64,000 bases of DNA from Saccostrea cucullata (lineage: Eukaryota), in the NCBI RefSeq assembly GCF_032062105.1, contig NW_026941129.1, positions 62,001-126,000 of the forward strand, read 5' to 3'. The notes below the pieces were generated by a model that saw nothing but the letters and a program-made list of their open reading frames with translations, ran no database searches and was not told the origin of the DNA. A program made the position numbers and the translations under genes. This document shows positions 2,273 to 41,489 of this stretch, in pieces (the stretch's first letter is position 1; the number at the start of each line of letters is the position of its first letter).

Positions 2273-5200
2273 CAAATGGATCTGCGTCTAATTTTAAGAA
2301 GACTGCCTTTACTACATTGTGTACATATTTTGTATACGACTCCATAAAACCTATTTGAGTATTTCTTTTGTTGCTCAGGTGAGTGATGTGGCTCATTGGA
2401 CATTTGTTTTACTAGCTACCTTAATTTCTAAAATAATAATGAAATGTTGAAGAATTTCATTCCTTTTTTCAATACTTGCAGTTGTATAATGTATTTTTCA
2501 ATTTTTTTTTACATCATTTATATTTTTTTCAAGGGATGACCTACCTAAACTGGTAAAACGCAAGTTAAAGAAAACAGGAGTGAAAGAGAGTCCTAACGAA
2601 AAAAAATGGAAAGAAAAAACAGGAGGAGAATTTGTTGGGAGTGCAAAAAGGATCATTTGTCTGGATGAAGAGGGTGATGTCAGAGAGTTTTCAGAGGAAA
2701 CAGCAGAAACTGAAGTTGAGACCATTAGTCTTGATGAATATGATAAAGAGCAAACTGTTGGAGAGATTTCTGATATATATGGGCCTTTGTCATCTGATGA
2801 AGAAGAAAATGTAACAGAATTCTTTAAAGACTTTCCAATTTTCTCAAGAAAAATTGGTGGATATGGAGCTGCAGAAATCATCGATGTTCTGATGAAAGTA
2901 GACAACTATACTCAATATGTATGTCCAACTGTTCCTTTACAGTGTGAAGAGAATGCCACTTTCTTTTGATCAGTTGATACTGATAAACTGAGAAAATTTT
3001 CAGATCTGACTGTGGATGACAATGGGCTCTGGAAAAGGCCATCAGGATCAAATTTGTATCTTACAAAGACAGAACGAGGTTATAAGTCCAGCAGACAAAT
3101 TACTCAATCATATGATTTTCAGCTCAGGAAAAGCTACTATGTCCATGCTGGGACTCCAGATTTCCACAAAATTGTCTACACTATAAGAAACTCAGAAGTA
3201 CACAACCTCAGACATGCAATTATACAGTATTATTTCCAAGATGGAAAAGTTGTTCCTGTCTTAAAAAATGTTCCACATGGAAATTCTAAGAAAGAAAATC
3301 CTTTCATTAGAACAAAACCAAGTGCAATTGCAGAAATGAAGAACAAATCTGTTTATATGCAGCCCAAGAAAGTTGTTGCAGATGTGTTCAATGAGAAAGG
3401 AGGATCGTTGAACTTCAAATCACCATCAGATATACCTAGAGACAGAACTCAAATTTACAACATTAACAGAAGCAACCCTAGAAAATACCAGACTGGTGGA
3501 AAATGTACTACTAATTTTGATGCCATTATCAAGATGTCTGTTGAGGGCAATTTTGCTCGAAGTTTTGAAATGAAAGAAAATGGTCATGCCAGGTGCTTCC
3601 TTGCAACAGATCAGCAACTCCTTGGTGTGAAAAAATTTTGCTGCAGTTCAGATTCCATTTTAGGCATAGATCAAACATTTGATCTTGGAGGATTTTACCT
3701 TACATGTACCACTTACAGACACCCTATGTTTGTCATCAGAGATAGTGGCAGACACCCTCTTTTACTCGGTCCATGTATGATGCATCTTAAACGAGAAACC
3801 AGTGACTATGAATACTTCGGCAAAACACTCTCTGGATATATTAAAGATGACGTTGTAAATGTATGGGGATCAGATGGAGAAAAAGCCCTCATAAATGGCC
3901 TTCAAAAAAGTAACGCTTTTCAAGGAATCCATCTAATTTGTGAGATACATGCCCGAGAAAACTGTGAAAGAAAGCTTAAGTCATTAAACTTTAAAGAACC
4001 TCACATAAATTTATTTTTGAATGAGATATATGGACAGCAGCATGGGAACAAACGCATTGGAGGGCTCATTGACTGTGAAACAGAGGCTGATTTTGATTCA
4101 TCCCTCATCAATTTGGGCAGGAAGTGGGATGCAATTGAAGTTACCGAAACTGGAAGAAAACCCCCTGAGTTTTTTACTTGGTTCAAGAAATTCAAAGCCG
4201 AAGAGTGTAAAAGAAACCTTTTAAAACCAATCAGAACAGCAGCAGGGCTAGGATTTCCTCCTATAAGATATACAAACAACAACAACGAGGCAATTAATAG
4301 TGTGCTGAAGCGTGAAGTTGACTATAAAAAACAGTCCTGGGAGAACATGGCGGTGTCTCTGCAAAACATTATCCACACTCAGTATCAAGAATTGGAGAAA
4401 GGAGTGTTCAATGTTGGGGAATATAGGCTGCATAAGGATTATAATCATCTCTCCGTATCAACACTTAACTGGTCTCAGTTAAACAAAGACCAAAAACAGG
4501 ACAAGCTTGCCAAAGTATTCAGGTATAATGCAGAAGTTACTGAATTGCCAACTCACCATATACCTTCAGTCCTTTCCGAAACATACAATTCCCTGACTGG
4601 TACGATCTACAAAGCTCATGAACTAAGAGATGTCTGGAGAAAAGCAGGTCTTCTTGCAGGAGACAAGTCCATATTCACTAAACTTTCATCAAACAAAACA
4701 TGTATAGACTGTAGTGAAAATGTGTACATTGTAGAGGGAAATGAAGAAATGGATTGGTTTACATGTACTTGCACTGGGAGTCACAAATGTCAGAACTTTG
4801 ATAAGTTTGGAGTATTCTGTGAACACACTATTGCAGCAAGTGAATTCCGGGGATCTTTGCAAAAGTATATACAAGAAATTAAAAAGTGTTCTGAAAAAGT
4901 GTCTCTTGATGCCCTGCTTGAGAAACATACCAAGAAATCTGGGAAAAAAGGGTCCAGAAAGGGAAAAAATGATCCCCATACCAGACCTGTGATTACATCA
5001 TCAGTGCCACTTTTCACTGAACCTTTCCACAATGAGGATGAATTTGAAGTAAATTTCCTAAAAGATGAAAAAAGAGCCAAAAGATGTGCTGCATGTGGTG
5101 TAGATTTTCCAAAATCTGTAGTAGTTCAACCATTTGATCTTGTAATGCAGCATCCAGAGCGATACCTATATCCGCAGAAAAACCAAGGTGAAACTGAATG

Positions 5201-6436
5201 GGTGTACACAGCTCAAAAAAAGAGAGCCACATTCTATCACTGTGCGCCAGAGTGCATTCTAAAGCGACATCCCCATTTCACAATTGATAAAATAAAGATT
5301 CCTGAAAATGTTAGATCTAAACTGAAGCCATGCCACATAAAAATGCTCCAGTCTCATTTTAACATGGATTTGTAAGGCACTGTAATCAACTAAAAATTTT
5401 GTTCTGTATATAACGTTCTGATTTACTTTTAATTGAAAATGCTTTTCTTTGTTATAGAATTCTTGTTTTATTACTAATTCAGAAGGACACAAGATTGATA
5501 TTTTTTACTCTTGCAGTTTTATTTCTTGTGACAAGACTGTCTTTGGGAATGGTTACTATGAACTAAGAATCTAGTCAATCTGATGTAAACTTTATGTTGC
5601 TCAAAACAAAGTTATGTTTGTATTTTTTGTTCTCTTTGTTTGGATAAGATTTTTGTGCTTTTTTTCTTTTTTGGCAATGTTTGGTTTATCATAAATAAAA
5701 GAGAAAGTTTAAATGCTTGTGGGTTTTTTTTTTATTCTTGGTCTGTAATTAATAATACACTGGTTTTATCAATTTTCATTGGCATCAATTTTTGTGCTAT
5801 CAGCAAATGATTCAGTATTTAGATCATCATAAAACTTTTGATATGCTTCTTACTTTAACGAACATCTAATTCTACTTTAATTTTCACTCTGCAAAACACA
5901 AAAATTAATGTTAAAGGAATGTTGATGGAACCCAATGTACATGTATTTTGATATTGGGAATTTTAATGACAGAGATGAGTGGTTGAGAAGACTACAATAC
6001 AGGAGAGGACAAATAGATCTCTAAGGCACTTTTCCAAGGGCAAGTACATATAGTAAAAATTCACTTGCCCTACCTAATTTGTTGCCCTACCATAAATAAT
6101 ACTGTAGTTATAAATATTTCAAAATAGGAAGACAAATACTAAGTAGATCATGTAGGCCCATATGCCCAGCTGTAACTAAAGCCCCCCCCCCCCTTCTTCA
6201 AATAAAGACGGTAATTTTAGTAATAGAATTATCTATAATATGTAACAAGGAATCTTTGTCAAACATAGATACCAATGTATTGCAGCTTATTGTCCTAATA
6301 ATTAAGTCTCTTAAAAGGAGGTTAAACTCAACAGTCTAGGGTCTTTCTGTAACACCAGTAAACTTTTGTCTTACATAAAGAAAATTTATAAAAACCAAAG
6401 CACTAAATATTTTTTAAATGCTATTAATGTTTGGAG

Positions 6437-6729: not shown

Positions 6730-7714
6730 ATCCTTGATTAAGTCTTTCTATGTTCTTAGTGTAGTCTACTTGCATGCTACATTATATTATAATCAGACTA
6801 AAACCGTATTTGAGTGGTATTTTGAAAGTATTAAACAGAAATTTCTATTTTTAGTAACCAAAGGCAATGATATTCATCGAAGTCTAAAACTGATACACAG
6901 AATTGTGTATCTTAGTGTAGTCTACTTGTGTGCAAACCTACATTGAAATCAGTCCAAAACTGTAGGAGACGTAGCATTTTAAAAGAATTTCACAGAAATT
7001 TCTATTTTTAGCAACCACGGCAACACTGTTCATCGAAATCAAAAACCGATACACAGAATTGTGTATCTTAGTTAAGTCTATTAAGTATTTGTGTGCCAAG
7101 TTATATTGAAATCAGTCCAAAACTGTAGGAGGAGTAGCATTTTGAAAGAATTTCACGGAAATTTCTATTCTTAGTAACCACGGCAACACCGTTTATCGAA
7201 ATCAAAAACCGATATACAGAATTATGTATCTTAGTGTAGTCTACTTGTGTGCCAAGTTATATTGAAATCAGTCCAAACTGTAGGAGAAGTAGCATTTTGA
7301 AAGAATTTCACAGAAATTTCTATTTTTAGTAAGCATGGCAACACTGTTCATCGAAATCAAAAACCGATACATAGAATTATGTATCTTAGTGTAGTCTACT
7401 TGTGTGCCAAGTTATATTGAAATTAGACCAAAACTGTAGGAGGAGTAGCATTTTGAAAGAATTTCACAGAAATTTCTATTTTTAGTAACCAGGGCAACAC
7501 CGTTCATCGAAATCAAAAAACCGATATACAGAATTATGTGTCTTAGTGTAGTCTACTTGTGTGCCAAGTTATACTGAAATTAGACCAAAACTGTAGGAGG
7601 AGTAGCATTTTGAAAAATTGTTTACAGACAGACAGACAGACGGACGGACGGACGCCGGACGCATTACTATCGCATTTATAAGCTCTTCTGGTCTCTGACC
7701 AGTAGAGCTAAAAA
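6730..7714 (+). mobile_element. HINE/pearl-like (Helentron-associated) element with ~6 x 155-bp core tandem repeats
   Basis: Unit 'cttagtgtagtctacttgtgtgccaagttatattgaaatcagtccaaaactgtagg...' recurs at ~155-165 bp spacing, followed by (GACA)n(GACG)n at 7626-7660, a terminal hairpin ctcttctggtc-tct-gaccagtagag and an A-run. Confidence 0.8.
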
Positions 7715-15200: not shown

Positions 15201-18200
15201 TGAACCTCTAGCATGCTGGAGTAAAATATAGGTTAGCTAGGGGATATAAATACAAATCCACAAGTGAGTAGGAGTTAACTTTTCATAGTGCTAAGATTAA
15301 ATAAACTTCGACAGCATTTTAGGGTATTATAGAAAGGATAGGTTTACACTAATTTAGCATATTAATTTTCATGCTCTCTATCATAAAGCTATTTTTTACA
15401 GCCTTAAAAATAATTTTGAAGTTTATAATTTTAATAACCCATTCCACAGCATATTTTTGCAGGAGGAAAGGGGGAGGGGTCCCTCCCCAAAATTCCCAAC
15501 GTAGGAAGCTTAAGGTGTAGTACGATCATGCCTATTTGATAGAGTATTAGCTGGAAAGGGATTTAGAATGAAGGTTTTAGTCATATGTGCCTTACATGTC
15601 TGGTGCAGTCCATCCACATTAACAAATGCTTAGGGGTAAATACAAAGTACATGTACCCTATTGTGTTTCTTGGCTTCAAAGGTAAATAGTATATACAAGA
15701 TTTAATCAATTTTACATGGTCTTCGGAAGAGCTTGGATTAAAAAATAAAGTAGTACTTAGATAAGCTCATTTCTACAGAACTGGCAAGATACGTTACAAA
15801 ATATCACAAAATATGTTCTGCACTTGACAGAGTTGGAATATGAACACTTAAAATTATTCTACAATACAGGAACAACTTAATCATCCTTAAGGGGGGGGGG
15901 GGGGGGGGGGGTAGAGAGTATAGGTGCTCATCTCATTCATCTTGTTTGTAATCTTTGCAGGAAAGTATATTACAAATTTTTCTTTCAAATTACCTAAAAA
16001 TGAATAAGAAATAAAATTCAAATGAATAAACCAATAAATAAAAAAGGAGGGATAAATCTAGTTAAGACATATTTTCACTTTATATTCTTACATTAGTCCA
16101 GTTAGTTCTTTCTTTCTGACTGAGTAAAATAGCTGGATATTAATAATAGAAATAGAGACCCAAAGCAATACAACTTCGAAAGATATAAAATCAGGGAAAA
16201 GGGGGGGGGGGGGGTAAGGCACGGTAAATTTGAAGGGTAACCAGATTTATTTTAATGCAGCATAAATCTACAGTGGGTTGGATATGAGAGAGAGTGATGT
16301 TCACGACGGATGGGTTGCTGAGGGTTTTGAGTAGGCTAGGAGTCCATGGTGGGTGATTAAATTGAAGTTGCCTACCCCCACCAGGTGGCGGTGGGCACCT
16401 ACGGTGCCCATGTGGCGAAATCGTCACCTTCAATTTAACCATTGAACTGTTGATTTTGTTGACTTTTTGGGGTTGATGTTGATATAAGTGATGATTGATG
16501 TTGATATATGTGATGTTGACTTTGAAAATTATATCTTATATAATGTAAATCTAAAGCAAAATAATATAATTAAAAGACAATTTGTGTTGAAATGTGTCCG
16601 TAGCACGAATGAGGTCAACCCAGCGTGCTACTTTTCCCGTCAGGGAGGGCACAACTTATGTTGATGTTGGGGGTATGCCATTTTGCCGGCTGCCCCACTG
16701 TTGTGTAGACCACTGTGGACAATACCTGCCAACTCGAATAAAACATTAAACTTAAATACTTAGCATTTGTTTATTATATATAGGTCTTTGATAATACCGC
16801 ATATTTGAGTTCATCTCATAATATGCGTCGTTATCTAAGCTCTATATATCCTTTGATTATATGTCATCATTCACCTCCTTTTTGTGAAAAATTAATAAAT
16901 GAGATAAGCCGGAATTTATTTATCCATCCATGCAGTGTCAGTACGTAGTTACTAGGTTTACGGGTTATCTCCCCTTTTCTATGCATCAATGAAAGTGAAA
17001 GGTGGGTGATGAAAGTATCCGATTTATTTTTCTGTATTATGAAATACCCTCCCACCTCAACCCTTGAGCTAGGTGTTAAGTATTACTCTTTCTCCTTTTG
17101 TTTGTTTAATTTACGTATACATTGTTTTTCATGGGTTAGGTATAGCCAATTTATTAAAGTTATGGAAATTTTATTGAGAATCTTTTTCTGCTGTGTGGTT
17201 TTGTTTTTGTCTTTTCAGGTATTAAGAGATTTCGTTGAAGGAGACTGACGGTGCTGATCAGGATTGCCCGCTATTTCCGTTTTCTAGGACCTTTGGAATG
17301 ATCTCTGACCAAATACCATGCGTGACAGGTGTCAACTTGGCGATTTATCCATGATTTCAAGGAGCTCGGGGAAAGACAGTAGACTATACTTCACAGTGGT
17401 CGTATTGGCGAAATCGTCACCTTCAATTTAACCATTGAACTGTTGATTTTGTTGACTTTTTGTGGTTGATGTTGATATAAGTGATGATTGATGTTGATAT
17501 ATGTGATGTTGACTTTGAAAATTATATCTTATATAATGTAAATCTAAAGCAAAATAATATAATTAAAAGACAATTTGTGTTGAAATGTGTCCGTAGCACG
17601 AATGAGGTCAACCCAGCGTGCTACTTTTCCCGTCAGGGAGGGCACAACTTATGTTGATGTTGGGGGTATGCCATTTTGCCGGCTGCCCCACTGTTGTGTA
17701 GACCACTGTGGACAATACCTGCCAACTCGAATAAAACATTAAACTTAAATACTTAGCATTTGTTTATTATATATAGGTCTTTGATAAGAAAGGCATTTGG
17801 GGCATGACCCCTCCCACCCCCTTTCCATTTGTTTTCTTTTTAAATCTGAGGTGGGCACACCTTTTTCCAATTTTGGTAGTTTAATAAGCATTACTTTATA
17901 TCGATTATGTAACCCTTTTGATACCAGGTAGATTTAAAAAGGAAAAAAATAAAAGGCGTGGGGGGGGGGGGGTTACAGCCCCCAAAGTGCCCTGTCAACA
18001 TCTCTAAAATTGATGAAGCGTCCAACATACATATTTTTTAATAATCTTTTTTTCTTTGTACGATCATTTGTTTTAAATTGAATTTGTTTATTTATCAATT
18101 ATAATTATTAATGTAATTTACACTTATTCTGTCCTTACCACTCTATACTGCTGACATGTGCCCCCGCTGCCCGAATCTGTAAAAGTAGGATCCCATCCCT

Positions 18201-18471
18201 TCACAAATCTACAATACTCCGCTCCGCCGGATTCACAAACCTCTACCGCCTGACATTCCAGATTTCCTAAACATCTACCAGAACAATGGCCGATCACGGA
18301 GCCGGGAAATGTCGTTATAGTCTCGTAGGTACGAGTGTTGAACGCCTCCGGTACATCTTTGTCATATAACAGAGATGTACAATCCTCGGCCTTACAGCTC
18401 AATAGAACACTAAGAAGAAATAGTGGAAATAAAATCTTAATATTAAGTGCCCTCATTTTAGACGTGGGCAA
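9272..18471 (-). CDS. Secreted PAN/apple-like + MAM domain protein (partial)
   Basis: Exon ~18139-18471: signal peptide plus PAN-like Cys pattern (CSGRCLGNLECQAVEVC...YCRF). Exon ~10527-10612: DLCDFEIAPEPSCFL...DDIFNWMR (MAM start). Exon ~9273-9404: GPTGSVNTGPDGAKAGTYYKYIETSSPR...AKLVS (MAM). The exon1-exon2 phase link and 3' exons are not resolved. Confidence 0.65.
9581..10030 (+). mobile_element. HINE/Helentron-like non-autonomous element
   Basis: Starts aacaagatgtgtttgtgaaacac, has ggtcaaggtca core repeats, a (GACA)n/(GACG) tract and terminal hairpin cccggatctatcgatacggg. A related fragment lies at ~8975-9200. Confidence 0.65.
10680..11257 (-). mobile_element. Nested SINEs: inner copy 10921-11187 inside an older related copy
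   Basis: Two homologous bodies (acgtcaccattgccggtgaagggctgcaaattt.../acgtcagcactcgccgatggaaagctacaaattt...). The inner copy has a (GATT)n tail and is flanked by acgtaaagatt (10910-10920) and acgtaaggatt (11188-11198). Confidence 0.7.
11972..17787. mobile_element. Non-coding element with split direct repeats A1...B1-A2-unique-B2 (non-autonomous PAT/Ngaro-like tyrosine-recombinase retroelement candidate)
   Basis: A1 11977-12224 matches A2 16799-17046 (248 bp, identical by eye). B1 16413-16794 matches B2 17406-17787 (382 bp, one substitution seen). B1 and A2 are joined by TACC. No long ORFs. Confidence 0.6.
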
Positions 18472-19115
18472 ATGCGTTAGTCCTTTAGGTCTGATGAATT
18501 AAGAAAATGCTGTGAAAGAAGAACGTGATAATGGTCCAATTCCAAAATATACTTTACTTGCAATTGACTTTGGAACTTGTTAATTAAATACATTTTAAAG
18601 AAGTTAATTTTAATCGATAAAGAACTTCGTGCATTTATTGAATTTAGTTGCACATTGACAATGAACAATGGCAACCTAATTCCTGGCCTGAATGAATAAC
18701 AAAAATACATGGTTTCTGTATCGATTTCATGTTCATTCGGTGCGAACTGCGGTCTGTTAATTTTCTAAAAATACAGTTGAGTTGAAACTATATCATTTAC
18801 TTTGTATAGTTTTGTTGAGAAATTTGCTATTATCAAAATACTTTTTTTCTTAAAAATTGACCTAAATATCGAGAGAGAAAAAAGACCTAAGCACCATAGC
18901 CCTAATAATTTTTTTCTGCTCTTTAAAAAATAAGGAATAAATGTATCACACACTGTTGCTATTGTATATACGCTAGAATTATATTAAAAACTTTATGTAC
19001 CCTTTAATTATTAATTAAACAAATTAATTCAATCTGCTTACAATCTGCTTGAATGTTATTAATGAAATTTTTTCATTCCTTACAAAAATTCACCCAAATC
19101 CATTGCTGGAGAATT

Positions 19116-19205
19116 AAACAGTAGCGTAATGGTTTTATTTATTTATTTATTTATTTTTGACCACATGGTCAAAGACTAAAATATAAAACCATAACGCTAC
19201 AGTTT
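19116..19205. repeat. Short palindromic MITE-like hairpin
   Basis: aaacagtagcgtaatggttttat...tttgacca|ca|tggtcaaa...ataaaaccataacgctacagttt; one arm recurs at ~113-148. Confidence 0.65.
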
Positions 19206-19952
19206 TTGCAAATATTTAGCCCCCTGCAGTCAATTTATTTTGATCGAAGACTAATAAATTGATATTGATTTTAAACTTTCTTTCGCTGAACATGACATTG
19301 GTACATTGATATTTTGGCTCCTTTAAATACTAATTTTCTTGGTGAGATATTTCCTTCTGCGAAACTCGACAATACATGTGTATATAGTATTTAAACAAGG
19401 TGTTGAAACAGACAAAAGCCAAATCCAATCGAATTTTTTTCCCTTTATTATTACACTGATCTATAAATCTGCATTTATCTTGACAACACTTCTGTAGTGA
19501 AGTAATATTGATAAATGTGAAATCATTTTTGTCTACTTGTCTACATCAACATTTTTTGTACAGCTTGTATTTGGAAAGGCCCTCTATATATAGGCCATGC
19601 CTGATGTCCAATCCAATTATGTTAAATCGACGTCATATAAATAAAATACTTACATATTTTGACTTAAGCTTAAGATGCTTAAAGCCATGTTAGCTATAAC
19701 TCACGGTGCCAAAAATAAAATTGGGGAAAAGACAGATAATTACGAGAATAGCTTTTCTTTTCTATTGTAACAATTAATTTTCGTGAAAATTCGCCTCCAA
19801 AACCATTAAATCAGTAATAAAATGTAAGATCTGAAATACTGGCTGCCAGCCACTAATTCCTAAGTCGTTATCTCGATATTCAGTGACCCCTGGGGTCACT
19901 ACTTCGGAATGCTCTAATTGCGCATGTGCCAATCTTGTAAACAATCATCACA

Positions 19953-22900
19953 ATGTCGGGAAAGCGTGGTCCGAAAGTAAAATTGACCGATTCAGAGAGA
20001 AAAAGACGCAAAAAGGAGAGAAATGCAACCGTGAACAAATGCAGAATATCAATTGGGGATCAGATTGAGCGATGGGATGAATTAAAAAACCAATTAGCCA
20101 TTGAGAATAATGCTGAAATGGCGAAAGTATTACTGGACTGGTAGGTGTATTTCTACGCTTTTTTTTACACAGATTATTGAATCATTTTATATTACTTTGA
20201 TGATTAAGAGTAATAAATATGAAAACAAAAGAATGTTTCATTCATCAGAATATTAGAGATTACTGTTATCTTGTATATCTTGTGGTGTAAACAGTTAGGT
20301 TTCGTCCTGTTCACAAGGGGACCCCAAGAAGGGAAATTCTACGAAATATCAAAATAGTTAAAAAAAACAAACAGATAAATTAATCTATGTACTTATTGTG
20401 AATAAAAATACTTTATTAAATGCATAAATCCCATAATTTTGTAATTATAATATTTAATTTAGATATTTTAATATTGTTTTATAAAGTTATGCTGAGAAAA
20501 ACTCTCGTAATCAGACTACGTTGAAGACTAATGTCGTAAATAATAGAGGGAAATTTGTTCCACATGGCACTTCAACACCTGCTCCATTTAAAATCGCCAG
20601 GAGAGATTCAGAATCTGAAATTTCGATTATATCAACAGATGAATTTAAGAAAAGGTGTGTACAATAAAATTGAAATTTTCTTCATTGATGCACAAAAGAT
20701 ATTTATTTTGCAAATATGATTTTAAAATCTTCAAATATGAGAACAATTAATATTTTTAGAGAGGAGAGTGAAATTTCTGGAATTGAGGACATTGATTCTG
20801 TTGGTGCCACAAGTAGCAGTAGGAAAATTTCGTGTCATCCATTTTCAAGCAGTTTCTTGGATCCTTTTGAGTGAGTGAAATTGAATGAGGCATATGAAAT
20901 TATATTTTTCAATAAATTAAAATGAACCTGCATTGCATATCATTTTTTTTCAGTCTCACTGTGTATTCATCTGAGGTGCAAGATGACATAGAGGATGCAG
21001 TGGATGATGACTATGAACCAAGTTTTCATCTTTCACTGAGGTACGTGAGTCTGACACTTTCCCAATACAGATAATTGATTAAAAATATTTTTAAAAATTC
21101 AGATTTTTTTTTTTGGCAAAAATTATTAATGCAATGGTTTTCATTCAATGTTATAATGACTTGCTATATCTCTAGACTGGATCATGGCATTCTGCCCAGT
21201 GAATCCGAGGATGAGGAAGATGAAGAAAACGTTCAAGAGACTGAACAAGAAGTAGAACTCGGTCCAAACATTAAGAGACTGAGAACAAATGATGAAATCG
21301 GGACACTACTTGAGGATCACCCGGTCTTTGTAAATACTCAGCAATTAATGGAACTTGCAAGGACAACAGTGCCCCCCACTTGCAAGGTGAAAGGATGTGG
21401 CGAGATTGTTCAAATGAATCTGCAAACAGTATCCTCTGCAGTCTACCTTAAGTGGGTCAGTATGAAGGATGGAATTTCATTTTTTTTTCAGTTGTTAATG
21501 AAATTTCAAGTATTAAATTTTTATTAAAGTTTTTTTTTGTAAAATATTTTAAAAATTATTTTTTTACATGGCTGTATTCAGGTTTGTGGGAAAGGGCATA
21601 CTGCAAACAAATGGAGTTCACAGCCCCTTTTGAACAGAGGCCTGCATAGCACAGATGTTTTGATATCAGCTGCCTTAATAGCTTCTGGAAACAACTTCCA
21701 AAAAATGGCAATGTTTGCAAAGTTTCTGAAGATTCCTTTCCCTTCACAATCATCATTTTGCAAGATTCAACGGACTTATGTATTGCAAAGCATTGACCAG
21801 ATATGGGAAATTCATCAAAATGAAATCATGAATGAATTTCAAGGGAAGAATCTGGTGATTTTAGGTATACAACAAGCATATTTAGTACACTTATGTGTTC
21901 ATCTAACATGAATGGTATAGTAACATATTGATAAAACCTTTAATATAACCTTAATCTTGTTATAGGGGATGGGCGCATGGATAGTCCAGGCCACTCAGCC
22001 CAGTTCTGCACCTACACATTTATGGAAAACACCACTCACAAAATTCTCCATATTGTTGTCATGGATAAACGCATGACAGGGGGGAAGAGCGCAGTACTGG
22101 AGAAAGCCTGTTTTCAGAGAGGATTACAATTTCTTCTTGACAAAGGCCTAATAATTTCAGAGATTGTTACAGATGCCCATGTTCAAGTCGAAGCACTGAT
22201 GAGTAAGTTGATATCTTTTATCCATGATTGATTACAAACTTTAGTTAAGAAATTAAATTAAAATGATAAAGACATTTTACATGTTTTTTACAGAGAGAGA
22301 ATATCCACATATCAAACATTCTTTTGATATTTGGCATGGCTGTAAAAATCTGGGAAAGAAAATCATTCAGGTAAGCAAACCATTTAATACATATACCTAT
22401 GATAAAATAGAGAAAGTTTTGTTTGTTTCACTGTTTAAATCATGTTTAATATTTCTTCAAAGGCAGGGCAAGAGAAATCAAAACGCCCCTTACTACAGTG
22501 GACAAGAGAAATTGTCAACCACTTTTGGTTTTGTGCAGACACAGCAGAGACAGAGGATGAATTTATTGTAAGTATGGATTGAAAATTACATGAGATATTT
22601 TAATCCAAATAAATATTTTAAATAAGAAATTTGCAAAAGAGATTTTTTTTAATTTGTAGGGTATGTGGTTGGGTGTTATTCACCATGTTGTAAATCAACA
22701 TGAGTGGATATTACCATATCGCATTGGTTCCAAAAGTTCGTGCATGCATGGACCACTGACAGAAGAACGCGAAAAGGGGTGGTTAGAGGCTGGATCACCA
22801 GCCCATGTTGCTGTAAGGGACATAGCAAAAGATAAAAGACTCCTGAAAAAAATTCCATATTATTTGAATTGCAGGTTTGTTTGTTTTTAACTTTATTTAT

Positions 22901-23502
22901 GTTTGTGTGCCTTACAAATTGCATACCTATTATCTTTTGAATATGTTATTATTTTTACATAGGAGTACAGTTGTCTTAGAGAATTTTCAGAACCTTATTC
23001 TGAAATATTCCTCTAAAAGACATTCCTACACACCACCAGTGTACAAGGGAAGAAACATTATAGCAGCTCTGGATCACAACTGTAACTGTAACAGAGACAC
23101 CTTAAAGAATAAAGATGGATCCTTGAGGTATTTATCTCCATTTATTGTTATCAGTGTTTGTTATCATAGTAATTATTTATTACATCACAAAGTAAAAAGT
23201 TTTCTATAAATATAATTGTTTTAATAAAATATTGTAGACACCAGAGGTACTACAGTAAGAAGAGTGGGAGATGGGCAACTTATGAGGTCAAAAAGTCCAA
23301 AAGCTACCCATATACAGAGGACCTCATGAGGAAATGCCTGGAGAATAGACTGTTGGATGGGATTGGTATGAACAGACCAGTTATTCTCGAGGCTGATGAC
23401 CCTAGGAGAATCTCTTCAGTTCTGGCACCAATCCCACCACCACCAACATCTCAGCTTGTAGCCGAGAAAAAATCCAGATTCACTGAGAAAATTGGTGATT
23501 AG
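19953..23502 (+). CDS. Kolobok DDE transposase, 12 exons, ~726 aa
   Basis: Exons 19953-20140, 20487-20654, 20760-20870, 20954-21040, 21176-21455, 21582-21864, 21966-22202, 22294-22370, 22463-22567, 22660-22874, 22963-23127, 23238-23502; all GT-AG, phase-consistent, 2181 nt. Motifs CKVKGC...WVCGKGH..WSSQP, GDGRMDSPGHSAQFCTY, VTDAH, HSFDIWH, HVVNQHEW, LENF, AALDHN. Confidence 0.88.
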
Positions 23503-23514
23503 CATATATTCCCC

Positions 23515-25008
23515 CTAGTCCATCACACCTTCCAGATACCCAACATATTGTCCCGATGGTTCTGGGAAAGTGTCTCTGATCCGCCATACACAACAGCTAG
23601 GGATGACTTTTCTGTTGCCTGCCCCAAGTTTGCCATGGACCCACATGATGAACTGTCTGTAGGCAGCATACCTCCGAGATCTGTTGATGTTTTCATCTCT
23701 CGGCTCAGCTAGTACATCATTGTAGTACCTCAAGGCAACTTCAAGAACAAGTTCATCAAGAACCACTGTGTAGAAATCCTGAAAATATATATAGATCTAT
23801 GGTAACATACAATTCGCTTTGATTTTTTAATTTCCCTGCCAGGTTCAAATGCAGTAATTCTAAAAAAAAAAATGTATGCTTACTGGTAGCCTTGACTGAC
23901 AATTCTGCCTTGTTTTGCCACAGCACACTTTTTCTCTGTCAGTGGGCATCTCCCTGCAATAAGTGCAGATGCACCAGCTTGGTGCAGTCCTGCTCTCAGA
24001 ACCTGGTTGTTCTGGTCCACCACCCTCCAGTGTTTCCATTATGTCGAGCATAAATGAGGGTTGCTTTGAACAAACTAGTCTGAGGACTGTTCTTAATTCC
24101 TCAGTGTCCATCGATGAAATGCATTCCTAAAATATTTTATAAAATATTTAGTAATTTTATATATAATATGTATTTATACATTTATTTATAATGATATAAA
24201 TATTGAAATAAAGTTATAATATTACTTACTTCTATATGTGTTTGCCTCTCCTGTCTGGCTCTGATGGCTAATTGTTGCCTATTTGGCCCCTGGTGTGCAT
24301 TCCCACCACGCCTCCCTCTCCTGGCACCAACACGTCCACGCCCTCTGTTTCGACCTCTGAGTGCCTGTTACAATTTGTGTTAAAGTAGCAGTAATATTTC
24401 TTCAATAATATGTAATATGCTTAGTGAAAATTAAAATTTCAATGGACACCACACTTGATAAGGTAAATATACATACAGCTGTAAGACCCCGTCTTGATCT
24501 ATTTCCTCTTCCTCTTGTATTTGGCTCTGGCAAGTACTCTGACGATGAACTATTAAATTCAACATCGCTTCTAGATCTATTTGAGTCCTTTAAAAAAAGA
24601 AATAGAATAACCATAATATATTTTCTGCAAAATCATTACAATATCAAAATATTTAATATCCTTTATGTATTTTTTAACTCTTTAGTAGGTAAAATGTGTC
24701 ATATCTGTGTAAAGGCATCATATACATATCCATATTTTATGGGTTAAAATCATTAAATTGGTAAATATTCCCAAAATACGAATTTTTCTAGCTATTCATA
24801 TGGATTACAAAAAACCCCTCTCTGGTACCTCATTATATGTAAATGAAGCAGGTTGCAAGATTCTGACCAGTTCTTATTTTAAGAATGTTTAATACTAAAT
24901 TTTCATTTATATTTACAGTATATTACATTGTTTTAGCTTGCAAGTTATTCAGTTAACTCAAAAATATTACACACAAAGACAAAGCAGCCTTCTTACCTCA
25001 GATTCCAT
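23515..25008 (-). CDS. KolX-like accessory protein with P2X7 cytoplasmic-ballast-like Zn/Cys domain, 5 exons, ~254 aa
   Basis: Exons 24997-25008, 24477-24587, 24230-24364, 23884-24126, 23515-23778 (765 nt, all phase 0). RG-rich N-terminus; [19 protein letters not shown]; [44 protein letters not shown]. Confidence 0.85.
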
Positions 25009-26654
25009 CTTCGTCTGACCTCGTTATCAGCATCCCGCTTACACTCGGGAATAATCGGCTCGTGTGTCCGAGAGATAATGAAGGCAATGGTCAGTTCAAA
25101 AACGCACTCAGCAGGAATGCAATTAACAGCTTTCTTTTGTTTACCATGCTGCATTTTCTTCACAGAATCTTGGTATTATCTTAGTTTAACAAGTAGGTGA
25201 ATGTTTCAGAACAGATTAGCATGCAAAATTTTACCGTCAGTTATAGCTAACATGGCTTTAATGAGACCGGTGTCAGATGTTCATCTAATTTGAACAATTT
25301 ATAAATAATTAGATATTGTCAATAAATAAATAAGATAAATCAACTTTTAAATGTTACACATGATAGTTATAAAAACGACATTTTTTGTAACTCGTTCTAA
25401 GATGAAAACTTTTATTATATATATACAATCAATTTTCTGAAAACAAATTACACGGCGCGGGATTGGAGTGCGCCCAGCATTATTTTAAAGTTTAATTGAT
25501 AAGCTGCAAATTGAATGAAAAGATCTGTAAAATTTGCTGTTTAGGATAAATAACTCAGCACTGAGATCAGAAATGAAGTATTTCTTTGAATGAAAAGCTT
25601 AACTTCTCTGGAGTTCGTATAATTCTCGGCAATGTTTTCATTGATAAGGCGGCGAGCGTAGCGTAGATACACGGTTTTTCCGGGAGGGAAGAGATAAGAT
25701 CTCCTTGATGATCTTACACAGATGTTTTTTTTTTTTAGGAAACAAGTGTAAAAAAGATTGTTCAACAAACTAAGACTGTGTGTTTTTATCTCAATGTAAT
25801 TATTTTAACAAGATTTATATTGATTAATGATAATAATTAAGGAAATCAAAGTAGAATGGTTGTACTTAATGTTAGTTGTGGAATGACTAAAATATGACAT
25901 TTATAATTCGTATAAAGCAACATAGTTTATTATTTATTAAGATATGTTATACTAGAACTTTTTTCTTATACTGGATATCTTCGATTTTATTTTCAAAACA
26001 AATTCAGAAAAAAATAATCGGAATAGTAAATTCGAAATTCTTCCACATATGACAATAAAATAAAAAAAATGCTCGTGTTCCTTTACTTGTAAACAGTTAC
26101 AACAAATGGATAAATACATAGCAATGTAAAGAAAAAAATCAGGAAAATATACGTACTTGCACATCAGAGTTAAATTTTGAGCTCATCTTGTTTGTCAGTT
26201 GTTACCGATACCAGCTATTACATTTTGATAAGATTTTGATAGGTACATAATGCAGAAATAGGAAGACAAAACAAATACACGCCCTCAGAACCAGAATTTA
26301 TCTTCTTTTACTTTAAGCTGTACATTTCTAATGGCTAGCTCGCCAAGGCATTAGGTTATCTATCTTCATTCAGCGCAGGGGGTCGCGCAATCTTAATAAA
26401 ATATCACTGAAACAGGTTAACATCATCATGGAGTTTTTAAATTTAGACGGATTTCAATATTTTCATCTGTATACTTATCAGTATGTAACTAGATACTCTG
26501 GAGCTTTTAAAAAAATATCTCTTCATTCGAGAACTTAGAATCAGTTATCTTTACTCCGGATTCAAGAAGTGGCAGGAATTGAGGCGTAGTAATTCGGTTG
26601 ATTTTTTTTTTCATGGAAACACGGTGTTTGGGGATTTTTATAAACGTGTAAACC

Positions 26655-29600
26655 ATGGATCAAAAGCCACCTCGTCCCCGTACATTGCAGTTGTCGCCCG
26701 TGACGGCAAAGAAAGCGCCTCGTTCTGGGCGACATAGAAAACATGGCTCCTCGCGACAACGAAACGCAACAGAACTGAAAATCCTCGCAAATAACATCCG
26801 TGGAATTATAGAGGACATATCTTTTCAGAATAGTGAACAGTCCAGGGAGAACGTTCTTCGTCGATCTTACATTGGAATTAGCAGAAGTGCCGCTGCTTAT
26901 GGGGAACAATCCGAACCTCTATTTTCCAGGCGGAATATTGTCTCGGCATTTTACGGAGAAAACCGCTCTGGAGATGGTGTCACGAGAGAAACGGCGATGC
27001 AGATGTCAAATCGGATTGCAAAAACGGAAAGATACGACAGTAGACTACAGCAAGAAGGTAAAACAGACAAACGTCAGTCGTGTCCTTGGGATCTTTCGTA
27101 TTTTGACCAACATGGCGACAATAGGTCTCTACAAATCCTGGCTTCGGAGATCAACCATCTCCGAGAAATCCGAGAGAACGAGGTGCGAGATTTACTGACA
27201 GTGAACAACAAACTCCAACATGACTTGCTTGACGCCGATCGCGATATCTGTGCCTTGCAGGAGAAAAACTTTCAGTGTAACAAGAGACTGGAAGATATGT
27301 TACGTGTTTATGAAAGAATACGTGAGAATCTGAAGCAATGTTTAACCAAAGTCAAAGACCTTGAGAGCCTTGGAAAATTTACACCTCTCAACTCGGATGA
27401 CGAGTCTGCCTCCCGGTATACATGTATTAATAGATGTTTTAGTGTGTTGATAAAATCTTAATGCATGTAAAGTGTGTTTACTATTTTGTGTTTTAAACAC
27501 CTATATGCCAGATTAAAAACTCACATTTTTTAAAAATGTATTTTGTTTATTTCATTTAACCTGTTATTCATATAACTAATTATTGGTAATAGTACAAAAA
27601 TTTAAGTCTAGTATATATAGTTCATATATACAGTATTATAATTTTCAACAGTCTTGAGTTTTTCGAATGTATATAATGGTGATGTACATGTACAAAAAAT
27701 TAAGCCTAGTATATATAGTTCATATATACAATATTATAATTTTCAACAGTCTTGAGTTTTTCGAATGTATATAATAGTGATGTTAGTGTTAAATGCATTC
27801 CCTAATTAATTCCATATATTTTACTTTAATGTTATAAAGGACCCAGAAAGGAGATTCATATACATGTAACTTATTGATGGTAATAGTACATGTACAAAAA
27901 AATTAAGCCTAGTATATATAGTTCATATATACAATATTACAATTTTCAACAGTCTTGAGTTTTTCGAATGTTTATAATGGTGATGTTAGTGTTAAATGCA
28001 TTCCCTAATTAATTCCATATATTTTACTTTAATGTTATAAAGGACCCAGAAAGGAGATGACCACTCAGCCGACCAGGCCAGTATGTCCTCGGGATTCAAC
28101 ACTTTATCGGACATGTCCGAAAGTCTCCCATTGGACACGGTGGCTATGGGATACGAAGGTATATAATTTTGAATTAAGGAAAAATAATCTATTAACAGTT
28201 GACCAGTTTACATATTACTTAATGATTTACATTGAAATCTCTCTTGTTTGACTCAGTTTAATGAATGGTGTACATACAGACACATGTACATGTATACATT
28301 TTCATAAAGTAAGCGTGCCTATCCGGGTACATGTACAGAGAGCAATAGTAGGTTAAGAAAAAATAATTTCCAAAAAAATATGAAGTCTTTCAAAATCTTC
28401 AACTTTATGTTCATTCAAAAGATTATATCAGGATTAAGGGGGGTGTTGGAGAGTGGAAAGTAGTGGGGCTTTGCGGGAAAAAGTGTTCTCTCCTAAACAT
28501 CAATTCCTTTTAAATTATGATAACATTCTTTATGTTAGCTTCCAAAGCCAAAAAATGACTTTTCACTCATTTCGCTATGTACAGGTGATGGAGAAAATTC
28601 GACCTGTGAGAGACGCCGTGTCGGCCTGTCTGATATGAACGAGCTCCTGAGGGACATCGACTCCATCAGTCTCGACAGTCGCAGCACCGGATGTGGGGGC
28701 TCTCCCCCGGAAGTGAACAATGGAGCATCTCCACATCCGGAACGTAAACTTTTGGCGAGACTTCATGAAGACGTAAACTCACTGTCGCAGATTAATAGGG
28801 ACCAATCCCAGGTAACGGCCATTCCACTTCAATTGAGATTCCGCGTCCGCTCTTCTCATACTTTTTGCATTGCTTCGGATGTACATGTACATTAATGTGT
28901 AAATCACTTTATATACAAATACAAAATGTACTAGGTACATATGCACCAGTATACATTGTAAATATAGAATGCTAAACAGAGCTTACAGTTAACACACTAA
29001 ATAAATACCGTCGACCAGTATTCAGCATTTCAATTTGTAAATTACCATCAAAAGTGTTTTCAAATTTTGTTTATAGGAAATTGAGCGTCTGCGTTCGGAT
29101 CTGACTTCCTGTCGTAAACACATGAGTTCCTCACAGTTTCAGCTAGAGGCTGTGGAAATCGAATGTAGTCGTTTACTAGCAATGGAAGACCAAATAGCCT
29201 CTGTTATAACTCTGCTCCAGAGGGCAAAGGATGTGGTCTGTAAATTAAAAAATCTGACGAATTCTTTATATCTCAGTGACTTTGATTAATATCTTTACTT
29301 AATTTTAAGAGGTATAGAGTAATGCCTTTATTTATCTCAAATTTTAAAATTCATTTTAGCATCTACATAGACAGATTTTGGGGGACATTATCTTCAATGT
29401 TGTAACGTCGTCCGTGTCCCTTTCTAGCGGATCATCAGGTTATATATTTTAGTTGTTTTATTCTAAACAGGATACAAAAAAACTAAATTTTGAAAGAAAT
29501 AGTTGAAAAAAGATATGTAAGTGCATTTAAAATGCCTTTCAACTTCTTTACAGGAATCCCAGCTGATGTGTTTTTGCGAGAGCTTCAGGAAAGATTATCA

Positions 29601-29957
29601 ATGCACCCTCAGCTGGCACTCTCGGAATTGCACGATCCAATCGAAAACAAGAAAATGCCATCTTCCATTGGTAAAGAACATAGTGCGCATGCTCTGCCCA
29701 AGAAACGTCCAGGTAGTGGAGACAGCAAACGTTTTGGGGCCGTATTTTCGGATCTTTCCCTCTCCCAACCTGTTTTAGAGTTTGGAAAGCCGACAGAGAG
29801 AAGACTAAATGTCGTCGACTCGAAACCAAAGACTTCGGATAAGAAAGACATGCTTGAGGCACTTAAATTTATTGACGATGAAGAGGACCAGCTCAGCGAA
29901 GCTGAGTCATTTCACAGTGTCGGTAAACACTTAGTGGGGGATTTTGAAAAGAATTGA
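26655..29957 (+). CDS. Uncharacterised coiled-coil protein, 6 exons
   Basis: Exons 26655-27415, 28043-28158, 28585-28811, 29077-29235, 29360-29438, 29554-29957 are phase-consistent; heptad-rich segments (LASEINHLREIRENEVRDLL..., LHEDVNSLSQINRDQSQEIERLRSDL...). Confidence 0.75.
27583..28058 (+). repeat. Intronic tandem duplication including a splice acceptor
   Basis: A ~100-bp unit (aattaagcctagtatatatagttcatatatac...tttttcgaatg) occurs three times; 'ttataaag|gacccagaaaggagat' occurs at ~27832-27855 and ~28035-28058. Confidence 0.8.
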
Positions 29958-31151: not shown

Positions 31152-32266
31152 TTAATTAATTTTGTATCCAGAGAAGTAATTGAAAAGGCCTCCATTAATA
31201 AATTTTGCCTTAACATGATTTTTGATCCACACCCTGTTTCCTTTCTTTAGCTCGGTAACAAAGTGACCCGTTGTAGAGATGTAGTCGGCTTGTTGATTCA
31301 CAATGCAGGTTCGAACACGTTCTTTACCATCAACCATAAGATAAGGATAAACAGTTCCACCCTTTAAGGACACGAATAACCAATCTAAAGAGTAAAGACC
31401 ATCCACCGGTGCTGTAAAAATCCCTGTTTTCGGATCGTATCCTTTGCCCTTGTTCAACTGGACGTTGTCAAATTTTATGACCGTGTTTGCAGGAACATTA
31501 TTGAGATGATTTTTGAAATTGGCATGAAAGGCGATTATCTCGGCAAAAGGAGCTAAATTAAATATAATCTCTGTTATCAAAACTACACAAACATGCACAT
31601 TAAACGCAAAATCAAAGTCAATTAAAGACAATAGACTATTTTCTTCGAATTATTATCATTATGTGCTGTGATAATGCATCTACATAAATAATATTGACTA
31701 AAAATGAAAAGTAAATTAAAATATTATATCATAACTATTATCTTATTTAACTTGGTTGTAATTTTTAATCAAAAGAGTGAAGCCTTTCCTGTAAATATAT
31801 CAATTTTAAATATCCATGCATTATACACAAAAAGTCTTTAAAACAAATTCAAGTAATTGTGAAAGCTTAAAAACCGCAGAAATTCAAATTTGCAAAGGTC
31901 AGAATTCTGCTTTTTTTTAATGTAAAATATAATTTATAATCGAAACCACCGGCCAATTTACTTAAACAAGTGACGCATATACATGTACTATATGTTCCGT
32001 GCTTAATATATGTAAAAACTAATGAAATTGTATCTTAGTCTAATAACTGAATGTTGATAATATTCTGTTAGTTAATTGTTGATTAATATGCTATCGGGAA
32101 AAAAAAAAAACCTTAGTACTATACCTTTCCTTTCTTTACAAGTTAGTCGTTGACAAACTTTCATGTAACTGTCGTAGTCTTTGATGAATGCAGTTGGAGG
32201 GGATGGATCGGCCAAGGAACTGGTCAGCAACAGGACAAGAACGTTCACAAAAAAGATAGATATCAT
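31152..32266 (-). CDS. Secreted globular-head C1q domain-containing protein
   Basis: Exon 32125-32266 (signal peptide MISIFFVNVLVLLLTSSLA) and exon 31152-31552 (IAFHA...IKFDNVQLNKGKGYDPKTGIFTAPVDGLY...ELKKGNRVWI...FSGYKI); phase-1 intron; no collagen repeat. Confidence 0.92.
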
Positions 32267-34845: not shown

Positions 34846-35564
34846 GTTCGAGAACAAAAACTTTTTTTTAAATCGGACTTAACTATTGAACTCAAAATTT
34901 AAAACTACGGGATTTTACTTATTAACAAACACAGATATAATTTTGATAATTTTATTCATAATATAAATTCTGAAAACATTGTGTAAAATAAAGACAAAGT
35001 ATTGCCAATGTATAATTTATGGATTATATCTGAAAAAAAGGGAATGTTTGGGCATTGCAAAAAATTGTAATCATAGTGAGCGTGTACATTACATCTCACT
35101 ATCGCAATACTTGTGAATTGGCTGATATTTTACGTTGTAATAAATTGTACTTTTAACACGTAAACGGTATCTTATTATTTTATTTAATGTTTCCATTGGT
35201 TTGGATCAATGATCCTTTGATAAATCATTTAGAGAAATCTTATGCACGTTGAATTACGTGCTAATGTTTTGTATTAATTATCGTATTTTTTGTAATACAA
35301 AATCCACTTACATGAATTAGCATATAAAATAGTTGATATTAAGAGTTTTTTTTTGACATGCTTATTACGTTTTCGCAAATGCAGATTTTTCCGGATCCAT
35401 AGAAATTTTTGAATCCCTAATATTGGAAATTTTAGCAAAAATTCCAAGCTCTGTTTTGATAACAATGCACACTTTTATTTCCAAAAATAAATAAAATTCA
35501 AACAGTAGATAATGAATTATATATAAAGGGACACGTTTCTAGTCAAATCAGACTAAATTCAGTC

Positions 35565-36669
35565 ATGTTACGTACATTACTTGTGGTGTTCTCCCTTTTC
35601 TATTATGGAAATGCAGACATAGAAACTGTTTATAAAAATGTAGCGTTACATAAACCGGTGACTTTAAGTTCCTATCTGAACAACACACAATGGCCCGGAT
35701 CAAATGCTGTTAACGGAATCTTGAACGACCATGCCCATACATTTCACGACAAAAATCCTTATTTACGGATTGACCTCGAGAAAAATTACCACATATTTCA
35801 AATAGAGGTGTTTTCCAGACAACTTTGCTGTGGTAAGAAATATTGATTTTGTTCTGTTAATTTTGATTTTATTTAAGAGATACTATCTGTGTTTTGAAAG
35901 AAAAAAATTCAATGAGCTGTACTTTTTCATAACTTTGAACATTTAACAAATGAAAACATTCATTTGATTATTTTTAAATTATTTTTTATATAGTCCTAGA
36001 ACTTTAAAAGTATGTGTGTGGTGGGGGTTGGGGTATCCTGAGTTTTTATTCTTAAAAAAAGCTCGAAGACTTTCACCAACGACAAAATCATATATTTTAA
36101 ATAAACTATCTCTGAAGGTTACAAAAAGGAAATTATAAAAATGATTTATATTATCATTCAAATGAAAGAGATTTTGTACTTCTGCTTGAAATTTCTCCCA
36201 ATGTTCCTTCTTTTTTTGATTCCATGGCCTCCGATGATACCTATACATGTACATGTAAAATTGGAAATGATTGCATATAATCTAATCAAGATATCAATTT
36301 GATAAATGATGATGTATTAATTGCCTGGAAATATTGTTAAAAAATTGCTACAAATGTAACAATTTATATCCAGTTATATAGAAGAAAACCTGAGTTTCTT
36401 ATTCAAGCTTCATTACAAAACCGATCTGACATAATTATGTTTACCTTCTTTTTGTATTAGGCAATCAGCTTCATGATTTCGTCGTAAAAGTGGGCCGGAC
36501 ACTTGACGGTATGACTGTTTGTGGATATTATTCCGGATTTGCGAAGGACGCGGAGCGGATCGGAATTTATTGTCCCTATGCCATAGTGGGACGATACGTG
36601 GAGATTCAAATTATTGAAGGGTTCTCCAACATTCTGACGCCAGCTGAGGTTATTGTATGGGGAAAGTGA
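35565..36669 (+). CDS. F-type lectin (fucolectin-like), 2 exons
   Basis: Exon 35565-35832 (signal peptide; NVALHKPVTLSS...AVNG...HAHT...PYLRIDL...IEVFSRQLCC) and exon 36461-36669 (GNQLHDFVVKVG...CG...IYCP...GRYVEI...ILTPAEVIVWGK*); TATA at ~35520; AATAAA at ~36691. Confidence 0.9.
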
Positions 36670-40570: not shown

Positions 40571-41489
40571 AATGGTATATTGTATCTGCTGAAAATAAAG
40601 ATAAAATCTTGGTAGATAAAATAAACAGAAAGGATGCTGTTGACATCACAAACGTATGCGTTATAAGTTGATCATCATAGAACGGTTGAGAGAGATGAAA
40701 AACGGTCAAGATTTACAAAATTTCCGTAAAATGTCACCTTGTCAGCCAACAAGCTATTAAATGAAAATTTCGAGGAGCCCAAAGGCAAGTTGTTTACTCA
40801 GGACCCCTGTCATTGCAAAGAAACAGTGACCTACCATTCCCCTCTCCTCTCCTTAGGAGCGGAGAAATAATAACTTTTACACAAAGGTAACGGTCGAGAA
40901 AAGAATTCATTGGTACGCAATAGCTTACCTTACTTGACTCGATTTTTTTGGAAAATGATTTTTTTTGCAAAGCTCTTGGGTAACATGAGGGTTGGATAGC
41001 TTAATTGAATAATGAAAATCTCTTAATGTAAGGAAATGCTTCATAGTTCAACTAAATCTCCAATGGGTTTTTGTTGTCGTTGTTGTCTATTTTCATATTT
41101 CTATATTCTCCGGAACTAACGAATGAATTTCAAGCAAACATGGCACGAAATACCCATTGGTGAAAGGAAAACAAGATGAAATTTCTTTTTTATTACTATA
41201 TACATCTTGTACTTGTACATCCTTTAAAGACAGAGATATTATAAAAATCGTTAGATTAACCTGGGCTAATAATTATTTTTCCCAAAAACACTGGGTCAGA
41301 CAAGCAGAGGGCACTTGTGCCACTAAACCTATCTAAAAGAACTATTAGCTCAAAGAATTGTGGTCCCCCGCTTCCAATGTCTTTGTGGGTGAGATTCCAT
41401 TATTTATGGCATATTGTGTCAAATATGAACGTCGTTTCATATGTCATTCAAGAGTTATCACCAAAGTTTTTTTAATTAAATCAAACATG

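Follow-up and report, generated by a model that had tools for sequence, protein, structure and literature searches.

A two-gene, intron-rich Kolobok transposon of Saccostrea cucullata and the likely relationship of its first-exon domain to the N-terminus of ZNF692

A 64,000-nucleotide (nt) stretch of the Saccostrea cucullata genome (contig NW_026941129.1, positions 62,001 to 126,000 of the forward strand; hereafter, the window, to which all positions refer) was found to contain an element at 19683-25257 that is flanked by copies of TTAA and carries two genes, a Kolobok-type transposase and KolX. An earlier reading made from the letters alone (the sequence-only reading) had claimed terminal inverted repeats (TIRs) that match at 24 of 25 positions and an exact TTAA target-site duplication, and both are borne out at 19679-19707 and 25233-25261. 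The left TTAA lies at 19679..19682 and the right one at 25258..25261 (neither with a strand); the 25-nt left TIR, with AG as its first bases, occupies 19683..19707 on the plus strand, and the right TIR occupies 25233..25257 on the minus strand. The pairing of the arms breaks off at position 26, and the termini (AG...CT) have the form 5'-RR ... YY-3'. An 18-nt motif of the TIR occurs twice in the window, and two matches were obtained in none of 100 shuffles. Both TIRs contain the spaced palindrome GTTA-N4-TAAC (19690-19701 and 25239-25250), which would suit a dimeric binder, and which is absent from the TIR of L056, a distant complete relative that is described below.

Pieces of two very high-copy repeats lie immediately to the left of the element, at 19116-19205 and 19587-19622. 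The first is a 28-nt hairpin repeat, the other copies of which continue into CTGCAGCTA, and which we take to resemble a Helitron 3' end. The second is decayed, and the element sits at its edge.

The plus-strand gene has 12 exons and 11 GT-AG introns of 83-346 nt, and encodes a transposase of 726 amino acids (aa) with no internal stop. The minus-strand gene (KolX) has five exons and four GT-AG introns, all in phase 0, and encodes 254 aa, again with no internal stop, so that both genes are open across 2946 coding nt and the introns of the two number 15 in total. Our own splicing thus agrees with the two uninterrupted frames of about 726 and 254 aa and the 15 introns of the sequence-only reading. 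The genes are convergent, and their stops are 12 bp apart. The spliced transposase is identical at 726/726 residues to the RefSeq Saccostrea cucullata protein P0278 (LOC134257256, annotated as "uncharacterized"), and therefore all 11 transposase junctions match the NCBI model.

Exon 1 of the transposase (19953..20140, plus strand as for all exons of this gene; identical in P0278) encodes a basic helix (aa 13-30) and a domain without a name, and ends at a phase-2 donor. Exons 2-4 (20487-20654, 20760-20870, and 20954-21040), which rest on the splicing and on the RNA joints given below, encode an acidic linker that has low predicted local distance difference test (pLDDT) values in the model of a relative. 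A putative zinc ribbon (C254/C259/C280/H284), for which metal binding would be expected, is encoded by exons 5-6 (21176-21455 and 21582-21864), and the catalytic residues D374 (21968-21970) and D442 (22172-22174) by exon 7 (21966..22202). Exons 8-10 (22294-22370, 22463-22567, and 22660-22874) encode D463-x-x-H466, which is the C/DxxH signature, and an H2CH-type zinc motif (PMC9587614, PMC6004289) that was recognized by pattern as H520/H521, H526, C540, and H542, lies between DxxH and the last E, and is predicted to bind zinc. Exon 11 (22963..23127) contains E590 (22979-22981), which conservation suggests is the third catalytic residue, and exon 12 (23238..23502) runs to the stop codon. A perfect 8+1+8 palindrome is present at 19883-19899, about 55 bp upstream of the transposase start, and is possibly a promoter or self-binding site.

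The splicing of the transposase was compared with contigs from four of 24 candidate runs, namely X1 and X5 (DNA), X6 (RNA), and X8 (RNA by guess). All of the aligned contigs are from other samples and mostly 90-99% alike to the window element, and the results cover 15 of 31 joints. Ten of these 15 joints fall exactly at transposase introns 2-11 in X8, six of them also in X6, and none of the ten was found in X1 or X5, the two DNA runs; the remaining five are non-GT..AG joints in X1. No joint among the 15 corresponds to intron 1 or to the four KolX introns, and a piece of an X8 contig ends at 20140, the edge of exon 1. The sequence-only reading had proposed that the junctions be confirmed by RNA-seq, and 10 of the 11 transposase introns are joined in RNA contigs of related copies. 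Because the contigs come only from other samples, the spliced RNA attests related copies and not transcription of the window copy. There is no AATAAA on the plus strand within 23503-24207, and therefore the end of the transposase transcript is not fixed. A spliced X8 contig extends to 23794, across the last KolX exon, and a contig that spans two genes is no proof of a single transcript.

The AlphaFold model used to evaluate the fold of the transposase core is that of a relative, P0004, which is 63% identical to the window transposase. This model matched the ISCth4 transposase (E 4e-6), the P element transposase (E 3e-4), and Hermes (E 1e-3), which supports an RNase-H-type DDE fold of the core as seen in this close relative. 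The window transposase and the IS256/Mutator, P, and hAT transposases represented by these matches share an RNase-H core with a helical segment inserted after the second D; they differ in that the identity is 12-14%, and in that the window element has a strict TTAA target and a second gene.

The least certain part of KolX is exon 1, which consists of four codons (24997..25008; this and the following exons are on the minus strand): one piece of an X8 contig (rec26) ends at 24996, and another (rec25) crosses the site unspliced. Exons 2-3 (24587-24477 and 24364-24230), which were placed by splicing, encode a Ser-rich and then an Arg-Gly-rich stretch. The support from RNA for the KolX exons is indirect: X8 pieces end at 24996, 24587, and 24364, in agreement with exon edges, and X8 is without cover at 24446, 24447, and 24130, which are places inside KolX introns 2 and 3. 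Exon 4 (23884..24126) matched PF20478, the P2X7 cytoplasmic ballast domain, with E 2e-5, and encodes six (C138, C140, C143, C154, C155, and C162) of the seven cysteines of KolX, the spacing of which is ballast-like; exon 4 alone gave no chain in a search of the PDB. Exon 5 (23515..23778) encodes the C-terminal half of the ballast domain and matched PF20478 with E 3e-21 and P2X7 structures with E 1e-11. A 55-codon frame upstream of KolX (ATG at 25154) was not adopted as part of the gene, since it runs into a stop at the donor.

KolX resembles the P2X7 ballast and zebrafish Nanor in the seven ballast-spaced cysteines, and its C-terminus matches P2X7 residues 514-591, whereas it differs from both in being free-standing and in having an Arg-Gly-rich N-terminus. 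As counted from the structure-search alignment, R546 and R578 of P2X7 are kept in KolX, and H547, R574, and K583 are not; we take these five P2X7 residues to be GDP contacts. The core motifs, the fold of the P0004 model, the matches to PF20478 and P2X7, and PMC9587614 together bear out the claim of the sequence-only reading that the element encodes a DDE transposase and KolX.

In the available text of PMC9587614 (Kojima and Bao 2022), Kolobok is defined by TTAA and RR...YY ends and Kol0 by the presence of KolX, and KolX has already been reported there to be ballast-like and to have given rise to the P2X7 tail and Nanor. The window element shares with Kol0/Kolobok0 (type Kolobok-1_XT), as described in that text, the TTAA target, RR...YY termini, short TIRs, DxxH, a zinc motif before the last E, and a separate ballast-type KolX gene. 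The features that mark KolobokP are not seen: there is no long terminal direct repeat within 19000-26000, and the second gene is KolX and not the His-Me nuclease of KolobokP. The identification as a Kolobok thus held, and on the basis of its KolX gene and these hallmarks the element is assigned to the Kol0 type, an already known kind. The window element differs from Kol0/Kolobok0 in that no THAP domain was found and the domain encoded by exon 1 is present instead. THAP is usual in Kolobok transposases according to the available part of PMC6004289, and it is not among the defining features given in the available part of PMC9587614. No Pfam match to THAP was obtained in 10 exon stretches, in P0278, or in 12 transposase-bearing relatives, whereas the same library detected THAP in the loci L001, L002, and L015. 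Neither the lack of THAP nor the domain in its stead is mentioned in the sequence-only reading.

The introns of the window transposase were compared with 64 metagenome loci, using the informative subset of loci for each position. Breaks recurred at aa 373 in 11/49, aa 452 in 10/41, aa 477 in 8/31, aa 512 in 11/31, aa 584 in 6/25, and aa 639 in 5/21 informative loci, and at aa 278 in only 1/30. Six of the seven testable positions are thus common to 5-11 loci each, and the idea that 15 introns are a special feature of this element was ruled out because the positions are shared with distant relatives; on this comparison, the introns are a trait of the lineage. One of these relatives, L056 (2246-13617), is a complete, distant element of 11.4 kb with TTAA, a 13-nt TIR, the same exon-1 domain, shared introns, and a convergent KolX gene. 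The stops are 12 bp apart in the window element, as opposed to 0.7-1.7 kb in L042 and L056. In another group of loci, the core is in a single open frame, in contrast to the 15 introns of the window element, and three members of this group (L001, L002, and L015) have THAP upstream. A quick tree, unrooted and comprising 85 rows after the exclusion of 14 near-copies and short rows, separated the THAP rows from 23 rows with the exon-1 domain by a long branch with a Shimodaira-Hasegawa-like approximate likelihood ratio test (SH-aLRT) value of 100; what weakens this separation is that the tree has three THAP rows only, that 59 of the 85 rows are unlabelled, and that it carries a long-branch warning. 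Taken together, we consider it probable that the window contains a full-length, autonomous Kol0 Kolobok, and that this belongs to a branch that is rich in introns and has an unnamed domain, encoded by exon 1, at the place of THAP.

The exon-1 domain (aa 24-63; 20022..20140, plus strand) consists of a conserved core of about 35-40 residues that follows the basic helix, and its conserved columns (I/L-G, R-W, L, A, and L-L-D) form a hydrophobic core downstream of that helix. No Pfam family was found in this core or in 68 homologues; the Pfam and PHROGs searches gave only scattered single-member matches, including one to PF10723 at E 0.01 in 1/69 sequences. The phase-2 donor directly after the domain in the window is also read from the sequence in L025, L039, and L056. 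At E 0.001, a profile made from 11 transposase N-termini matched 1004 representative proteins, and the best 150 of them were examined. The non-transposase carriers of the domain, some of which may be fusions made by gene prediction, include C2H2 proteins of mussel, hemichordate, brachiopod, and three teleosts, proteins of sharks, and proteins with ZSWIM3_N. The latter (P0161, P0189, P0194, P0196, P0212, P0224, and P0236) combine ZSWIM3_N with two exon-1 domains. A family from sharks and rays (P0254, P0255, P0256, P0208, P0216, P0257, and P0258) has two or three exon-1 domains with acidic linkers and no Pfam family in the two members scanned; it is possibly another domesticated gene.

The transposase-only profile matched three rodent ZNF692 proteins with E values of 4e-7, 3e-6, and 9e-5 (database size 5.8e9; 40-47 bits), and a wider profile built without any mammalian sequence recovered three rodent ZNF692 proteins among 29 matches. 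When the basic helix was left out, the real sequences scored 38-44 bits, compared to 9-17 bits for the best of 5000 shuffles, with E < 1e-3 at the same database size, and none of the reversed-sequence controls scored above 5 bits. Exon 1 is identical to the ZNF692 protein P0263 at 17/39 residues, and a profile-profile comparison by hhalign gave 95.8%. The N-terminus of ZNF692 has no Pfam model. As in the window transposase, mammalian ZNF692 (AREBP) has at its start a basic helix and the same 35-residue core, followed by an acidic region; it differs in that a C2H2 array follows and there is no DDE core. These comparisons make it highly likely that the exon-1 domain and the N-terminus of ZNF692 are homologous, as are the corresponding domains of other host zinc-finger proteins. 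A likeness that arose by chance, through convergence of short peptides that are basic and amphipathic, would fit with the match spanning just about 40-52 residues, and it is very improbable given that the match holds without the basic helix and is not reproduced by shuffled or reversed sequences.

How the domain came to be shared is a less certain matter. The simplest account, which we regard as moderately well favored, is that hosts spliced the first exon of the transposase onto zinc-finger arrays several times. Capture by hosts is suggested because the domain fills one 5' exon that ends in a phase-2 donor, as is the case for known transposase captures (10.1101/2020.05.07.082677). Repeated insertion is suggested because the place (N-terminal or internal) and the number (two or three copies) of the domain vary among host proteins. 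Furthermore, part of the transposase core is still recognizable in the toadfish zinc-finger protein P0266 (E 2e-7 in a set of 16 proteins). Several results tell against this account. At aa 55-135, ZNF692 has another stretch that resembles Kolobok, but it scored only 4.8 bits, a value that was reached by 4-13 of 2000 shuffles. Of the 28 new matches of at least 280 aa, the transposase core was found in 10 and not in 18, so that many proteins other than transposases carry the domain, and a host gene may have been its source. The latter 18, together with the carriers among mammals, sharks, teleosts, a hemichordate, a brachiopod, and a mussel that are zinc-finger proteins or otherwise not transposases, are what would be expected if the domain were of ancient host zinc-finger origin and had been taken up by a Kolobok branch in place of THAP, with ZNF692 as a cousin. 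We give this host origin some weight as the less favored direction, since the variable position and copy number, the core piece in P0266, and the single 5' exon with its donor are all better explained by capture from the transposon.

We also evaluated whether the exon-1 domain might adopt a ribbon-helix-helix (RHH) fold, which is known mainly from prokaryotes. The model of exon 1 (pLDDT 86) has a coil-helix-helix form, with a helix at 13-30, an extended segment at 31-37, and helices at 38-48 and 53-61. The extended segment with alternating hydrophobics followed by two helices is as in NikR, NikA, PcfF, and the plant TCP proteins, which we take to be RHH or RHH-like. Chains of these proteins made up 6 of 50 rows in a comparison with the VIA structures and aligned from about residue 8-25 to 62 (36-47 aligned residues; root-mean-square deviation 3.3-6.7), but with Z values of just 2.1-2.6, below those of unrelated helical rows. 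No structure in VIA reached a Z value of at least 5, Foldseek with the exon-1 model gave nothing at E 0.001, and a homodimer prediction made without an alignment scored 0.21 compared to a mark of 0.32, which is no evidence either way. Sequence searches gave no match in the PDB, no match in plasmids by tblastn, and no usable match in the named clusters of the Atlas, a first search of which had given unnamed eukaryotic clusters only; such blank searches indicate neither absence nor novelty. No relative was found in viral contigs. An RHH fold is thus a possible one for the domain.

A function of the exon-1 domain in nuclear or nucleolar targeting and self-association only, with binding of the TIRs left to the zinc ribbon together with the catalytic core, was weighed against a direct role in binding the element ends. 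The available text of PMC10956046 attributes a nucleolar signal and NPM1 binding through an Arg-rich motif to the N-terminus of ZNF692, and about 140-150 poorly ordered residues separate the exon-1 domain from the core in the P0004 model, both of which would suit targeting. However, the conserved columns form a hydrophobic core downstream of the basic helix, and the domain occupies the position of THAP in relatives, and so a targeting-only function seems to us unlikely. We think it rather more probable that the exon-1 domain, at the place of THAP, binds the element ends, presumably as a dimer.

The sequence-only reading had also described the element as potentially active, which stands for the family and is in doubt for this copy. 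In favor of the family are the open frames, the spliced RNA of related copies, the synonymous differences, and the finding of element ends beside other flanks. In five listed contig pieces from three of the four runs (X1, X6, and X8), the match breaks off precisely at a TTAA edge, and 25-350 unmatched letters lie outside it: X6 rec16 and X8 rec23 start at 19679, and X1 rec7, X6 rec22, and X8 rec26 end at 25261. Because these pieces stop at the TTAA edges and have foreign flanks, the copies occupy other sites. The differences among copies that were evaluated, 40 out of 768 substitutions and 12 out of 121 insertions or deletions, were those chosen by the tool as best supported; the listed differences in the transposase coding sequence were synonymous in 14/14 cases, and 11 of the 12 insertions or deletions were intronic, the exonic one being 6 nt in length.

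Less favorable to the family, the listed differences in KolX were four non-synonymous versus three synonymous. For the window copy, no empty site was seen among the 15 joints, the flanks being poorly covered. P0278 is recorded on one contig only, with no identical second copy seen, and the single further annotated copy that was seen (P0036) is truncated, with 94% identity over 417 aa. An intact yet immobile window copy, representing an old insertion that was possibly kept by the host as for the Xenopus Kolobok transposases, would account for the single protein-identical copy with its diverged, truncated paralogue, for the one mismatch in the TIRs, and for the lack of an empty site, and many domesticated Kolobok transposases are reported in the available part of PMC6004289. 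We nevertheless regard an immobile copy as unlikely because the TIRs and TTAA are near perfect, both genes are open throughout, and ends in other samples adjoin other flanks, unlike a conserved locus. Recent mobility of the window copy is thus close to an even question, and activity is plausible though unproven.

By analogy with the family, the transposase would bind the TIRs, excise the element using D374, D442, and E590, and reinsert it at TTAA. KolX might be a nuclear helper, the Arg-Gly tail and zinc-ballast domain of which touch nucleic acid or chromatin, a suggestion that we make with reserve. Because the stops are just 12 bp apart, the 3' untranslated regions of the two genes most likely overlap, and the resulting double-stranded RNA could limit expression, which we view as conceivable though somewhat short of an even prospect. 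Among the literature matches listed there was no Kolobok transposition assay, and since the window holds an intact two-gene copy, the role of KolX is directly testable.

Taken by itself, the element is a clean Kol0 copy of an ordinary sort, and the interest is mainly in the domain of exon 1 and in how this domain is linked to ZNF692. KolX is the proposed source of the P2X7 ballast, and ZNF692 is a subject of nucleolar and cancer biology; the link would give the N-terminus of ZNF692 an origin and a testable fold and, if true, the transposase exon would be a further donor of host-transposase fusions that has so far been missed. The fullest version of this history, in which an intron-rich Kolobok branch has an RHH-type DNA-binding exon that was captured many times, ZNF692 is an ancient fusion, and the oyster copy is still mobile, is improbable as a whole. 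No link between Kolobok and ZNF692 was found among the literature matches listed, with Repbase, InterPro, and most subscription journals outside the search, and no listed paper pairs Kolobok with ZNF692, ZNF653, ZFP91, ZNF276, or AREBP. ZNF653 is included here on our assumption that it resembles the exon-1 domain. None of the listed papers on ZNF692 and transposases is about the origin of ZNF692 as judged by title or start of the abstract, and no paper was found that joins the terms Kolobok, ribbon-helix-helix, eukaryotic, and transposase. ZNF692 does not appear in the main text of 10.1101/2020.05.07.082677, the supplements of which may bear on this and were outside the search, and UCON29 is the only human Kolobok trace listed in the available text of PMC5753468.

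The element lies between two divergent genes, neither of which had a Pfam match, at 18124-18498 on the minus strand (small, with a signal-peptide-like start) and 26652-29957 on the plus strand (coiled-coil-like). Elsewhere in the window, two long open frames (159 and 801 aa) at 2490-5375 on the plus strand, without a Pfam match at E 0.01, presumably encode a Mutator-like transposase with SWIM-type cysteines, as judged by eye. A C1q-domain gene is present at 31152-31649 on the minus strand, a Cys-loop ligand-gated channel gene at 44786-46421 on the plus strand, and an F5/8 type C lectin-like gene, below the cut-off, at 35463-35846 on the plus strand. Direct repeats with 100% identity at 16413-16712/17406-17705 (300 nt), 11977-12224/16799-17046 (248 nt), and 53314-53422/53905-54013 (109 nt) are either recent duplications or assembly artefacts. 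Arrays of units of about 152-157 nt occur at 6754-7615, 41350-42052, and 50335-50927, the last two being inverted, and we take them to belong to the satellite-bearing mobile elements common in oysters.

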